From the NCBI GenBank assembly GCA_964545515.1, contig CAZJFK010000001.1, forward strand, positions 48,544-112,543: DNA of 64,000 nt, in the 5' to 3' direction. The notes under the pieces were generated by a model that was not told where the DNA came from, ran no database searches, and saw only the letters and a program-made list of their open reading frames with translations. The translations under genes were made by a program, and so were the position numbers. Source of the DNA: an uncultured Candidatus Saccharibacteria bacterium. Its GTDB lineage: Bacteria; Patescibacteriota; Saccharimonadia; Saccharimonadales; Saccharimonadaceae. Position 1 is the first letter of the stretch. Each line of letters begins with the position of its first letter. Below are positions 44,850 to 49,062 of this stretch, piece by piece.

Positions 44850-47747
44850 CTAAGCCTTTTGCAGGTAAATAACTAGCTCAGTATCCTCGACCTTGGCGGT
44901 AGTATTGTAACTATATTCGAGCTCCGTTATCTCACTAGCCAGTGTCTCGGTGGCTATAACTTCACTGTATTCCTCGATAGCCTGCGCTAGCTCACTATCA
45001 TCGGTGGAGAGCGACAAAGATATGCGATCATCGACGTTGAGCCCTGCGCTCTTGCGCGCGGCCTGCACGTGACGCACGACTTCGCGCATCAGACCTTCGC
45101 GCCTAAGCTCTGGCGTGATTTCAAAATCAAGTGAGACCTCGTCACTACCGGATTTCACCTCTTTGACATTGAGCTCTTCTCGGAGTATATCCTCAAAATC
45201 AAACGTCTCACCCAATTTCGGCACAGTGACGCTCGCTAACGGCTGGCGAATCTTGACTCTCTCGCGAGCACGCAAACTAAGTGCTTGATTGACATATTCG
45301 CGTACCGCTTCCATCTCGTTTAGAGTAGCTTCGTCGACACTATAATTAGCTGGCCAATTTAGTAGATGTACCGATTCGTTACCACCACCTAAATTCTGAT
45401 ACAATTCCTCAGACAAAAATGGCGTAAACGGCGCCAACAGGACCGACAGTTTGAGTAGTACATAGTGCAGAGTACGATATGCGTCAGATTTATCGCCATC
45501 GTCTTCGCTTTTCCAGAAACGGCGGCGCGAGCGACGCACGAACCAATTACTCGCATCCTCGATAAAAGGCAAGAACTCGCTCAGTGCTACTGGTATATTA
45601 TATTCATCCATATGCTTAGTCACGTGCTGATTTAGCTGATGAAGACGTGATACAACCCATTTATCAAGCGGGTTAGTCAGGTCATCAGGATTGAGCGTAA
45701 ACGGCTTAGTGGGGTCAAATTCCCAACCATCGACTTCGGCATACATAGTAAAGAAATCGTACATATTCCAAATCATCGTCAGTTTACGCGCTACATCACC
45801 TACATCTTTGTCCTGCAGGGCAAAATCTTCGCCATTTAATAGCGGGCTACTGAGTAGCAAGAAACGCAAAGAATCGGCGCTAAATTTGTCCATCAACTCA
45901 TTTGGATCAGTATAGTTGCCGTAGCTTTTGCTCATCTTGCGACCATCGTTACCAGCTACGATACCGGTAGTTACGACATTTTTGAACGGAGACTCACCAA
46001 ACAAACCGACACTCACTACGTGCATATAGTAGAACCACGCGCGCACCTGACCAATGTATTCAACCACGAAATCACCTGGGAAATTGGCCTCAAATTTATC
46101 TTTGTTTTCGAATGGATAATGGAATTGCGCAAATGGCATACTGCCACTCTCAAACCAACCATCGAGAACCTTGTCGATGCGTTTGTAATGCACGCCGTCG
46201 CGGTCAAATTCGATATCATCCACCCATGGGCGATGATAATCATCAAGCTCTACGCCACTTAGCTCTTTCAACTCAGCGTAGCTACCGACAACTATTTGCT
46301 GTTTGTTGCCATCGTCGTCTACACCCTCCCATACTGGCATGGCCGTCGCCCAAAATCTGTCACGGCTGAGATTCCAATCTGGCGCTTGTTCGATATTTTT
46401 CTCGAAACGTCCATGTTTGAGATGCTCGGGGAACCAGTTAATCTGCTCATCGTTTTTGCCAAGCATCAATTCTTTTTGCCCCTGTACATCGAAAAACCAG
46501 CTAGGGTGTGCACGATACATGAGGCGCGTCCCACAGCGGTGACAGTGCGGGTAACTGTGGCGAATATACTCAATCTTCCAGACAATGCCACGTTCATGTA
46601 GAGCCTTGGCTATCGTCTTGTTGATTTCCCAGACGTTTTCACCCTCCCAGTCGGTCTGATCATATAGACCGTTTTCATCAATGACATGAACGACTGGTAT
46701 TTTGTTTGCCTTGGCTAGCTCAAAGTCCTCCTCGCCATAGGCTGGCGCAATATGAACTATCCCAGTACCGCTATCTAGGGTCACATAATCCGCATGCCAA
46801 ACTTGATGTGCGTTTTCGCCACGATTCTCGCCCATAAGTGGCTCGTAATGTAGTCCTACGAGGCGAGAGCCATCCATTTCTTCGAGCAATTTATATTCTA
46901 AGACATTGTGCTTTTCATCGGTCAGAACTTTTTCGAGTAAATCCCTGGCTATGATAAATTGCTCACCAGCGACTTCAACGCGAGAATATACCTCGTCTTT
47001 GTTGACAGCAAGCGCCGTGTTCGCGGGGAGCGTCCATGGTGTTGTGGTCCAAGCTAGCATATAAACGGGGTCGTTTGATTCCGTCTCACCATAATCAGTA
47101 AGCTTGAATTTAGTATAGACACTGGGATCAGTAACATCCTGATACGCACCAGCGTCCATGGTGACTTCGGCTTTACTGAGCGGAGTTGCGTCACGCGTAC
47201 AATACATGAGTACTCGCTCACCTTCGTAAATCTTGCCTTTGCCATGAAGCTCCTTGAAAGCCCACCAGATAGACTCCATGTATTCTTTGTCCATAGTCTT
47301 GTAGGCATGATCCATGTCGACCCAGCGACCAATACGGTCAATCGTATCATTCCAGAGACTACTCGTCTGTACCATGTTGTCACGAGCGGTCGTAATGTAT
47401 TCTTCGAGACTGATTTTCGTACCGATATCACGACGGTCTTTGATACCTAGCTTTTTCTCGGTGAAAACCTCAGCCGGTAGACCATGGCAATCCCAGCCCC
47501 ATACGCGCTCTACGCGTTTGCCCTGCATAGTCTGATAGCGAGGTACGGCGTCTTTGACGATACTACTCAGTAGCGTACCATGATGTGGCACGCCAGTGAT
47601 GAACGGTGGGCCATCGTAAAATACGTAAGCATTATCAACTGGTCGCTGCTCAACTGATTTTTCAAACGTACCGGCGGTCTTCCAGCGTTTCACCCAATCT
47701 TTTTCATATTCTAGCGCCCGACGACGTGAATTTGCTTTAAATTTCAT
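44850..47747 (-). CDS. ileS: Isoleucyl-tRNA synthetase (type 2-like N-terminus)
   Basis: YVFYDGPPFITGVPHHGTLL (HIGH variant), CP1 editing domain, RKMSKSYGN (KMSKS). SD GAGGAG lies 7 nt upstream, inside the preceding micro-ORF. Confidence 0.96.
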   Translation of the reverse strand: MKFKANSRRRALEYEKDWVKRWKTAGTFEKSVEQRPVDNAYVFYDGPPFITGVPHHGTLLSSIVKDAVPRYQTMQGKRVERVWGWDCHGLPAEVFTEKKLGIKDRRDIGTKISLEEYITTARDNMVQTSSLWNDTIDRIGRWVDMDHAYKTMDKEYMESIWWAFKELHGKGKIYEGERVLMYCTRDATPLSKAEVTMDAGAYQDVTDPSVYTKFKLTDYGETESNDPVYMLAWTTTPWTLPANTALAVNKDEVYSRVEVAGEQFIIARDLLEKVLTDEKHNVLEYKLLEEMDGSRLVGLHYEPLMGENRGENAHQVWHADYVTLDSGTGIVHIAPAYGEEDFELAKANKIPVVHVIDENGLYDQTDWEGENVWEINKTIAKALHERGIVWKIEYIRHSYPHCHRCGTRLMYRAHPSWFFDVQGQKELMLGKNDEQINWFPEHLKHGRFEKNIEQAPDWNLSRDRFWATAMPVWEGVDDDGNKQQIVVGSYAELKELSGVELDDYHRPWVDDIEFDRDGVHYKRIDKVLDGWFESGSMPFAQFHYPFENKDKFEANFPGDFVVEYIGQVRAWFYYMHVVSVGLFGESPFKNVVTTGIVAGNDGRKMSKSYGNYTDPNELMDKFSADSLRFLLLSSPLLNGEDFALQDKDVGDVARKLTMIWNMYDFFTMYAEVDGWEFDPTKPFTLNPDDLTNPLDKWVVSRLHQLNQHVTKHMDEYNIPVALSEFLPFIEDASNWFVRRSRRRFWKSEDDGDKSDAYRTLHYVLLKLSVLLAPFTPFLSEELYQNLGGGNESVHLLNWPANYSVDEATLNEMEAVREYVNQALSLRARERVKIRQPLASVTVPKLGETFDFEDILREELNVKEVKSGSDEVSLDFEITPELRREGLMREVVRHVQAARKSAGLNVDDRISLSLSTDDSELAQAIEEYSEVIATETLASEITELEYSYNTTAKVEDTELVIYLQKA

Positions 47748-48012
47748 CGCTATACTCCTCTCCTAGTTCACCCTTAGTACGACGCTCAATCGGAGTGGTC
47801 TCTGGCAATACATCATCCATATCCAAATCATACATAGCTGCTAGGGTTAATATCTCACCTAGTAGGTCGTTGTCATCAAACTCAGACTCATCCAGCAAAT
47901 AGTCTAGATCTTCATCTACACCCGATTCATGTAATCGCCCCACGACAAGTTCGCGGTCTAGTTTTGGTTCGAGGCTCTGCTCCGGATTTGATTGTGGTGA
48001 AAATTCGCTCAT
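47737..48012 (-). CDS. Hypothetical very acidic 91-aa protein, overlapping ileS by 11 nt
   Basis: ATGA overlap with the upstream 61-aa ORF. Its 3' end carries the ileS SD. Confidence 0.45.
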   Translation of the reverse strand: MSEFSPQSNPEQSLEPKLDRELVVGRLHESGVDEDLDYLLDESEFDDNDLLGEILTLAAMYDLDMDDVLPETTPIERRTKGELGEEYSDEI

Positions 48013-48194
48013 TTCATCTCTCTTTCTATTAAATGTAGTGCTATTTTTAGTGCAGCTATCCGTCTACTGAGTAGTGTTTGCTGCGATTGACCAAGCTTCG
48101 GCATGTCTATTTTTTCGCATTTTTTCAGTGTCGATAGGAGCGCTCTATGTGCTTCATCGAGCTCATGATTGGTATATAGTTTTTCGGATTCCAT
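48009..48194 (-). CDS. Hypothetical helical 61-aa protein
   Basis: The ATG is preceded by GAAAGG at 6 nt. First ORF after the T-box-like leader. Confidence 0.45.
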   Translation of the reverse strand: MESEKLYTNHELDEAHRALLSTLKKCEKIDMPKLGQSQQTLLSRRIAALKIALHLIEREMK

Positions 48195-48214: not shown

Positions 48215-48414
48215 AAATAAAAACCACTTCTTTTGTCTGTCAGAATCCCGATATATCAGGACGGTACCATCTGACTTCCAAAAGAAGTGATTCTTTGGCT
48301 CTTTATTGTTCGCTTTGACGTAGCGTTCACGCCCGGTTCTACTTTCTTTTGAATTTCTTCCGGGGGCTCGTGGGTGATAGCCACTTAACGCCTGTAATCT
48401 ACAAGCGAACGCCT
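48215..48414 (-). promoter_or_regulatory. T-box-like tRNA-sensing leader (candidate Ile specifier) upstream of the micro-ORFs and ileS
   Basis: The minus strand reads GUCAGA-UGGUACC-G-UCCUGA-UAUA-UCGGGA-U-UCUGAC (48239..48275). This is helix A1, a 7-nt UGGNACC bulge, hairpin A2, and the A1 3' strand, as in T-box antiterminators. The bulge reads UGGU. An outer 11-bp stem (48225..48235 with 48279..48289) is followed by GGUUUUUAUUU. An upstream hairpin GUGG-CUAUCAC-CCAC (48370..48384) presents AUC-A. Confidence 0.5.
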
Positions 48415-48420
48415 ACGTAT

Positions 48421-48429
48421 ATTATAGCA
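48421..48429 (-). promoter_or_regulatory. Extended -10 promoter (TGCTATAAT) driving the T-box-like leader
   Basis: The minus strand reads TGCTATAAT, immediately upstream of the leader. Confidence 0.5.
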
Positions 48430-48435
48430 TTTAAT

Positions 48436-49062
48436 TTAAGCAAATAAAGCTTTACCGAATTTGATAAACACTAGTCCAACCATAGCCACTAGCCACAGAG
48501 CAACTATGAATTTGTCCCAATCCTTATCTAGGAATTTTTCAATTGATTTCTGAGTAGATTTTTTGAAATCAAAAGTATTGAGGCGTAGATTGTAGTGTGT
48601 AATCGCTGCAAATAGCACCGTCATACTTGTTGTAACTGTCAGACACCAAGGACAAAGTACCTGAATCACATAAACACTACTGAAAAACAGCCAATAAGCG
48701 AAGACCACGCCTAAAACTAAGCCAGTCTGCATGGCTATCAAGAACCATTTAGGAAAAGTAACGCGTGATAGGCCTAGCACCGCAAACGCCAGTATAACCG
48801 GGAATCCCATAAGACCTATGAGCATATTCGGAAAACCAAATAAACTAGCTTCGTTGGTCTGCATGACAGTTCCACAATTAAGAACTAGGTTAAACGAGCA
48901 GCTAAGTACTGCATCAGGGTTTTTGAGAACAGTAATTTCGTCGACAGTAAGTACAAATGAGGCTAATAAACCTACTAACCCAAACAATAAAAATGTACCG
49001 AAAACCCATATACGCGATTCTTCTTGTTTGACCAGATCTTTACCAAAAATTTTGCTAAACAT
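48436..49062 (-). CDS. Vitamin K epoxide reductase (VKOR) family protein
   Basis: 4-5 TM helices, loop cysteine pair (LSCSFNLVLNC) and active-site CPWC. Confidence 0.82.
   Translation of the reverse strand: MFSKIFGKDLVKQEESRIWVFGTFLLFGLVGLLASFVLTVDEITVLKNPDAVLSCSFNLVLNCGTVMQTNEASLFGFPNMLIGLMGFPVILAFAVLGLSRVTFPKWFLIAMQTGLVLGVVFAYWLFFSSVYVIQVLCPWCLTVTTSMTVLFAAITHYNLRLNTFDFKKSTQKSIEKFLDKDWDKFIVALWLVAMVGLVFIKFGKALFA

Follow-up and report, generated by a model that had tools for sequence, protein, structure and literature searches.

T-boxes are the textbook RNAs that read the charge state of tRNA, and to our knowledge all of those described so far switch by unzipping an antiterminator or an antisequestrator. 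The locus studied here raises the question of how a T-box could switch if its terminator leaves the antiterminator folded. It lies in a stretch of 64,000 nucleotides (nt), called the window from here on, from the genome of an uncultured Candidatus Saccharibacteria bacterium (GCA_964545515.1, contig CAZJFK010000001.1, positions 48,544 to 112,543), which is assembled into 875 kb in 48 contigs at ~97% estimated completeness. The T-box leader occupies positions 48215-48432 of the window on the minus strand, which is also the strand of all other features located below, and it precedes an operon that contains ileS, the gene for isoleucyl-tRNA synthetase (IleRS). A first-pass annotation, made by a model from the sequence alone, had noted an isoleucine T-box here with its antiterminator nested inside the terminator helix. 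We are highly confident that the leader is an isoleucine T-box with a nested terminator fold that captures a strand of Stem III, the helix just upstream of the antiterminator. The mechanism as a whole, in which a tRNA-Ile-sensing T-box attenuates transcription of two small open reading frames (ORFs), ileS and possibly a fourth gene (ORF61-ORF91-ileS(-mpg)) through capture of that strand, is in our judgment probable.

The ileS leader and its probable tRNA

Every element listed in the first-pass annotation was found in the sequence at the place given for it on the minus strand between 48215 and 48432, and the RNA that they make up is strongly folded. The 221-nt leader has a minimum energy of -69.7 kcal/mol compared with -46.4 +/- 4.4 kcal/mol for shuffled sequences (z = -5.3; 0 of 200 shuffles as good). 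At gathering thresholds, Rfam gave no match in the whole window. Under a permissive search the T-box family RF00230 aligns end to end with positions 48238-48397, with 37.4 bits and E = 1.3e-6, and this is the only such match in the whole genome. The Rfam check suggested in the first-pass annotation therefore returned a T-box match, at a score below the gathering cut-off of 93. In the alignment, 78 Stem I positions of RF00230 are replaced by a 7-nt loop in the leader.

That replacement describes an ultrashort Stem I (48365-48392, from the Rfam alignment), which is composed of GGC/GCC pairs, a K-turn-like internal loop GUUAAG/CGA and the specifier hairpin GUGG-CUAUCAC-CCAC (48384-48370). The 7-nt loop of the hairpin, CUAUCAC, holds the specifier AUC (48378-48376) followed by A, and AUC with a purine upstream of ileS is a specifier codon that matches the downstream gene. 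The leader lacks the long Stem I whose distal platform binds the tRNA elbow; its own Stem I amounts to a hairpin of 4 bp above a short base. Stem II (48332-48364) pairs CCCGG with CCGGG and carries the S-turn motifs GAAGAAA and AGUAGAA, of which GUAGA is invariant in alignment A2. It is followed by the Stem IIA/B pseudoknot (48311-48331), where IIA is CGU-GAACGCU-ACG and CGCU of its loop pairs with AGCG downstream; both Stem II and the pseudoknot are supported by covariation.

The sensing elements come next. A purine string, AAGAG (RRRxG; 48299-48303), conserved as UAAGYGC in alignment A5, stands 5' of Stem III, which is CCAAAGAA-UCAC-UUCUUUUGG (48278-48298), with 8 pairs and one bulged U, read from the sequence and supported by covariation. 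A linker of AA (48276-48277), invariant in alignments A2 and A4, joins Stem III to A1. The arrangement AAGAG-Stem III-AA fits the RRRxG-Stem III-AA motif, which the review PMC7583486 describes as integral to the aminoacylation sensor. The antiterminator element A1-bulge-A2 (48239-48275) is likewise evident from the sequence and from covariation: A1 pairs GUCAGA (48275-48270) with UCUGAC (48244-48239), the T-box bulge is the 7-nt UGGUACC (48269-48263), and A2 is G-UCCUGA-UAUA-UCGGGA-U (48262-48245). The G-U pair that closes A2 at its base in the leader is also found in 57 of 99 relatives.

A covariance model (R1) that we derived from six related leaders finds one copy in 332 of the 401 genomes of the order and in 212 of its 255 genera, counts that are a lower bound given the strict filters. 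Among the 80 closest IleRS loci, all named Candidatus Saccharibacteria or Saccharimonadales, 79 have an R1 copy upstream of ileS on the same strand, most of them ending ~40 nt before the start codon. In 79 relatives seven helices covary, with 91.9% of cells paired compared with 75% in shuffles and 27-46% when the pairing is slid, and 29 of the 34 pairs are changed on both sides. The Stem I hairpin is 98.7% paired, with all 4 pairs changed on both sides, and the base of Stem II is 95% paired (5/5 pairs changed on both sides). IIA is 88% paired, and the IIB pseudoknot, to which the alignment was not fitted, is 71.5% paired with 4/4 pairs changed on both sides. Stem III (98%, alignment A3), A1 (99.8%) and A2 (88%) complete the set. 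The specifier loop is NNAUCAN in 76/79 relatives and the bulge is UGGUACC in 68/79, so the AUC loop and the bulge singled out in the first-pass annotation are both conserved. Its T-box assignment is borne out by the end-to-end alignment with RF00230, by the covariation and by the ileS context.

The leader also fits a tRNA. In a complete genome of the same genus and in six other relatives, tRNA-Ile has the anticodon GAU in the loop CUGAUAA and the 3' end A73-CCA. GAU matches the AUC specifier, and A73 matches the bulge U (UGGU) of the leader.

The predicted enclosing terminator and its competition with Stem III

An 11-bp outer stem encloses the antiterminator, pairing CACUUCUUUUG (48289-48279) with CAAAAGAAGUG (48235-48225) in the fold and by covariation. 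The first of these strands (48279-48289) is shared between two helices: it consists of 3 nt of the Stem III loop and the 3' arm of Stem III, and doubles as the terminator's 5' arm. Its partner in the terminator, the 3' arm CAAAAGAAGUG (48225-48235), closely repeats the sequence of the Stem III 5' arm, with additional bases that let it pair with the Stem III loop too. The 3' arm is followed by a single G and then by the U-run UUUUUAUUU (48215-48223). The first-pass annotation had the outer stem and the U-run right, except that its 'GGUUUUUAUUU' includes the final G of the arm a second time.

The minimum-energy fold of the leader is exactly this nested hairpin, in which A1-bulge-A2 is kept inside the outer stem. 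In the OFF hairpin the 11-bp outer stem is thus followed by a 3x3 internal loop and topped by A1-bulge-A2, which is intact, and Stem III is unfolded. The covarying stem ends 1 nt before UUUUUAUUU; a simple terminator scanner did not list it, its 'loop' being a 43-nt structured insert. A canonical terminator was also looked for, and no downstream segment in the leader complements the 3' strands of A1 and A2 (UCGGGAUUCUGAC).

To place the relatives in the enclosing or the canonical class, we folded each of them by script over the region that begins with Stem III and ends at the U-run. The enclosing layout was found in 30/30 of the best matches in the order, in 78/79 IleRS relatives and in 10/10 lower-scoring order matches, and A1 is retained in the minimum-energy fold of 72 of the 78 enclosing relatives. 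Four relatives in the order (L003, L004, L010 and L051) have a canonical terminator, for which they use the 3' halves of both A1 and A2. The distance from the 3' end of A1 to the start of the U-run is 12-16 nt in 102/112 relatives.

A second model (R2), made of the discriminator and the terminator, yields an alignment of 99 sequences (A5). In A5, which was fitted to the terminator structure and so favours it, 11 of the 12 aligned pairs of the outer stem are changed on both sides and the stem is 93-94% paired, compared with 32-49% when slid and with 0 of 500 shuffles as good. In the same terminator state A1 is 99.8% paired and A2 96% paired, with many compensatory changes in both, so that A1, A2 and the outer stem all show the covariation for which the first-pass annotation had proposed to test relatives. 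Stem III, to which A5 was not fitted, has 9 aligned pairs, 8 changed on both sides, and is 91% paired (0/500 shuffles as good). The outer stem spans all nine 3' positions of Stem III and three bases of its loop. Judged from these aligned sequences, the shared strand has two covarying and mutually exclusive predicted partners, Stem III and the outer stem. The earlier description of a terminator that encloses the antiterminator and competes with an upstream hairpin therefore holds, the hairpin being Stem III, and both of the competing helices covary.

The two helices differ in strength. The duplex between the two terminator arms has a mean of -14.0 kcal/mol when both arms are from the same sequence vs -8.2 kcal/mol between sequences, and Stem III alone has a mean of about -7 kcal/mol. 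In this leader the OFF fold is more stable than the ON fold by 12 kcal/mol, and the direct path between the two has an estimated barrier of 8 kcal/mol; over 105 relatives the median direct-path barrier is 6.1 kcal/mol. We also observed that the A-rich 5' arm of Stem III (48291-48298) complements the U-run (48215-48223) and, once displaced, can lengthen the hairpin to ~17 bp in the minimum-energy fold.

Strand exchange as the probable switch, and other readings

From the fold, its conservation and the tRNA match, we infer that the leader binds tRNA-Ile, that transcription terminates at the U-run, and that docking of Stem III is what blocks the exchange of strands. The RNA would act as an attenuator with three strands, in which the 5' arm of Stem III and a decoy, the terminator's 3' arm, would compete for the shared strand, and the receptor for the tRNA end would be placed in the loop between the shared strand and the decoy. 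The AUC codon would be shown in the 7-nt loop, with support from the S-turn of Stem II and from the IIA/B pseudoknot, and the bulge UGGUACC would pair with the 3' ACCA of tRNA-Ile. When tRNA is absent or charged, the more stable outer stem (about -14 kcal/mol) would displace Stem III (about -7 kcal/mol) and the polymerase would halt at the U-run. Uncharged tRNA-Ile (GAU, A73) would lock Stem III and the purines onto the duplex of bulge and NCCA, withholding the shared strand until the polymerase has passed. In single-molecule work on the ileS T-box of Mycobacterium tuberculosis, the closest relative known, pairing with the bulge persists for a mimic of charged tRNA, but the linker comes undocked and Stem III shifts away (PMC12647780), and this behaviour fits a reading in which Stem III docks and undocks.

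Several points weigh against this mechanism. As a rule, transcriptional T-boxes require a long Stem I so that the tRNA is captured quickly (PMC7583486), and here Stem I is ultrashort and the decision window is short. The fit of A5 to the terminator, given above with its numbers, is another. The partner tRNA is a third: ARAGORN found no tRNA-Ile(GAU) in the window or in the whole assembly, and a BLAST search with the tRNA of the same genus showed that the Ala(UGC)-Val(UAC)-Ile(GAU) cluster of the relatives is missing from the assembly, so the partner was taken from relatives, first of all from the same-genus genome. The pairing at position 73 is also not strict. The bulge is UGGAACC in the ileS leaders L136 (G031), L139 (G043), L146 (G593) and L049 (CP011211.1) and UGGCACC in L144 (G067), and the tRNA-Ile(GAU) genes of G031, G593, G067 and CP011211.1, all four that were checked, have A73, which leaves no Watson-Crick pair between the bulge N and position 73. 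What the first-pass annotation had said of AUC and A73 thus stands for the relatives, with the tRNA gene missing from the leader's own assembly and an N:73 pair that is preferred, not obligatory, in relatives.

Two side results belong with the tRNA. Covariation of the bulge N with the discriminator base was considered and rejected, the relatives with UGGAACC or UGGCACC still having A73. The assembly holds three tRNAs with the anticodon CAU, one of which is an initiator by its C1-A72 mismatch and another maybe the lysidine tRNA-Ile2.

The remaining points against strand exchange are those that favour its closest competitor. Because the bulge is still displayed in the OFF hairpin, with A1 and A2 intact, a direct effect of the tRNA on the hairpin is possible. 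Furthermore, other Patescibacteria with the enclosing layout have a Stem III of only 2-3 bp, which leaves little competition between secondary structures, so that such competition alone would be insufficient and tertiary docking or direct hindrance by the tRNA must contribute more there. One can therefore keep the same RNA and the same nested hairpin and suppose that uncharged tRNA bound to the bulge hinders the outer stem, sterically or topologically, in closing or in acting on the polymerase. Stem III would then be only a part of the binding pocket, and its overlap with the terminator arm would be incidental to the tight AA linker. We consider this unlikely, given that the Stem III segment is in every case covered by the terminator's 5' arm and that the terminator's 3' arm mimics the Stem III 5' arm, that an outer stem of 11-12 bp puts the bound tRNA far from the base of the hairpin, and that published data tie the charge signal to the docking of Stem III (PMC12647780).

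It is a good deal less probable that the main output is translation or mRNA stability, or that the leader is a decaying relic, with the long hairpin serving as a constitutive leaky terminator or as a stabilising structure. The known T-boxes with an ultrashort Stem I are mostly translational (PMC7583486), and some relatives among the Patescibacteria lack a U-run and have CCUC in the A1 3' strand that can pair with GAGG downstream. The regular placing of the U-run 12-16 nt after A1 speaks for termination instead, the Shine-Dalgarno region of ORF61 lies outside any conserved pairing, and the strong purifying and compensatory selection on the specifier, the bulge and all helices is at odds with a relic. 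That A1 and A2 nevertheless come apart in the real OFF state, by way of a pairing overlooked by both the energy model and the scripts, is very improbable: L003, L004, L010 and L051 show that the lineage can build a canonical terminator, but nothing downstream complements UCGGGAUUCUGAC in the leader, and A1 persists both in the minimum-energy folds of most enclosing relatives and in the terminator-state alignment.

Strand exchange with Stem III thus stays our preferred account of this leader. With some hesitation, we lean towards extending it to a third T-box platform, present in Saccharibacteria and in many other Patescibacteria, in which A1-bulge-A2 would be a static receptor for the tRNA end that never unfolds, and the charge signal would pass only through the docking and undocking of Stem III, whose strand is caught by the terminator.

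Operon context, spread and relation to known T-boxes

The leader fills a gap of 241 nt on the minus strand, between a VKOR-family gene (48436-49062) and a 61-amino-acid (aa) ORF (48009-48194), and no ORF of at least 50 aa overlaps this gap on either strand. An extended -10 promoter element, TGCTATAAT (48421-48429), is predicted from the sequence, from which transcription would be expected to start ~7 nt downstream. There is no good -35 element upstream of TGCTATAAT, and a consensus promoter scanner did not list the promoter (weak -35). In the minimum-energy fold an 8-bp hairpin, CGCUUGUA-GAU-UACAGGCG (48392-48410), abuts the 5' side of Stem I, and many relatives have hairpins at the same place that are slightly stabler than shuffles (-4.9 vs -3.7 kcal/mol).

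Downstream, the first gene of the operon is the 61-aa ORF61, followed by ORF91 (47737-48012), which encodes 91 aa, is very acidic and overlaps both of its neighbours; neither has a family match in Pfam. These two ORFs lie between the T-box and ileS, and their stop and start codons overlap. A copy of ORF91 with 65% identity is found directly upstream of ileS in the relative L047, and there were no copies of ORF61 among the fetched loci of relatives. The regulated target would be ileS (44850-47747), which encodes a type-2 isoleucyl-tRNA synthetase of 965 aa (Pfam tRNA-synt_1, 6e-114, with Anticodon_1 and a C-terminal DUF5915). The first-pass annotation had the operon end with ileS, which is incorrect, since a methylpurine-DNA glycosylase gene (mpg) starts 3 nt after it. 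All four genes, ORF61-ORF91-ileS-mpg, overlap or abut each other.

Across the phylum, R1 matches 80 of 301 sampled genomes. The 58 matches outside the order that were classified comprise 26 with the enclosing layout, 15 with a canonical or independent terminator hairpin, 7 without a U-run within 45 nt and 10 that are unclear. Several of the 7 have CCUC in the A1 3' strand that could pair with GAGG downstream, much like the translational design of Actinobacteria. Judged by the downstream ORFs and the loops, the enclosing set outside the order takes in both ileS and valS leaders. Five leaders of other Patescibacteria (L141, L151, L154, L155 and L160) have a specifier loop that contains GUC, a ValRS-like ORF downstream and an enclosing terminator, and their Stem III is a mini-hairpin of 2-3 bp (e.g. 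CCACGUGG or CCGCACGG) that is wholly swallowed by the terminator arm. Four leaders of one Patescibacteria family (L170, L176, L178 and L179) have no U-run, and in them the A1 3' strand CCUCGC is followed by GCGAGGUCAU...AUGGAG. By sequence, this arrangement resembles a canonical sequestrator acting on translation, with GAGG of the Shine-Dalgarno region paired to the antisequestrator strand. Two other variants occur within the order. L005 (G024) follows a tRNA gene and has the bulge UGGAACC, a separate, long, AU-rich terminator hairpin and, downstream, an ORF starting MNEDQLYAMRHSLAHI. L009 (G039) has the bulge UGGGACC, CAC in a small loop and no clear terminator, and it may sense tRNA-His.

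The first-pass annotation had compared the leader to the short-Stem-I ileS T-boxes of Actinobacteria, and the likeness extends to the whole decoding domain. These elements, with an ultrashort or short Stem I, have been described in M. tuberculosis and M. smegmatis (Sherwood et al. 2015, via PMC7583486), and a crystal structure is available (6UFG, via PMC12647780). Both kinds show AUC and a purine in a small loop, lack the distal elbow platform, have a Stem II S-turn, a IIA/B pseudoknot, a purine-flanked Stem III and a UGGNACC bulge, and precede a type-2 ileS. The outputs differ. The actinobacterial element is translational, its sequestrator being formed by the 3' strands of A1 and A2 with the Shine-Dalgarno region, whereas the leader of this member of the phylum Patescibacteria has a predicted intrinsic terminator formed from the 3' strand of Stem III, with A1 and A2 intact. 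Sequestration of the Shine-Dalgarno region was looked for in the leader, and we found no conserved pairing of that region, and the 11-bp stem with its U-run instead.

In its predicted output the leader resembles the transcriptional T-boxes of Firmicutes, such as Bacillus subtilis tyrS and glyQS (RF00230). Like them it stands before an aminoacyl-tRNA synthetase gene, and like them it would pair a specifier with the anticodon and a bulge with NCCA and would form a default-OFF terminator that is stabler than the ON fold, with the U-run directly after the hairpin. Canonical T-boxes, however, build the 5' strand of their terminator from the 3' halves of A1 and A2, and a long Stem I carries the elbow platform (PMC7583486). 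In contrast, the leader studied here has a Stem I with a 7-nt loop, its terminator 5' strand is located upstream of A1, in Stem III, and what its terminator excludes is Stem III and not the antiterminator. The decoding half is as in Actinobacteria and the predicted output as in Firmicutes, and the strand that would be exchanged is as in neither.

Outside the T-boxes, a likeness is found in the pbuE adenine riboswitch, an ON-type riboswitch whose ligand-stabilised P1 helix shares a strand with the terminator. As there, a weak helix stabilised by the ligand, here Stem III, would compete with a stronger terminator for one strand, and the decision would be a kinetic one, made during transcription. 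Unlike in pbuE, the ligand would be a tRNA whose charge state is read, and the stabilised helix would be the docking neighbour of the helix that pairs with the ligand.

No T-box work on Saccharibacteria, the candidate phyla radiation (CPR) or Patescibacteria turned up in the paper library that was searched, and neither the T-box review PMC7583486 nor the TBDB preprint mentions the Stem-III-capturing layout or these phyla. For genome annotation there is a practical consequence: the RF00230 cut-off misses these leaders, so the sole recognisable aminoacylation riboregulator of the reduced CPR genomes stays unannotated. If the mechanism proposed here is true, it would contradict the rule of thumb that T-boxes of the terminator type need a long Stem I, and ultrashort-Stem-I T-boxes that are independent of the tRNA elbow could act co-transcriptionally. 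It would also provide a simple system that separates the binding of the tRNA end from signal transduction. Finally, the redefinition of 2019, which made Stem III a component of the aminoacylation sensor, would gain independent support from evolution through a conserved T-box in which the antiterminator stays folded and Stem III is exchanged.

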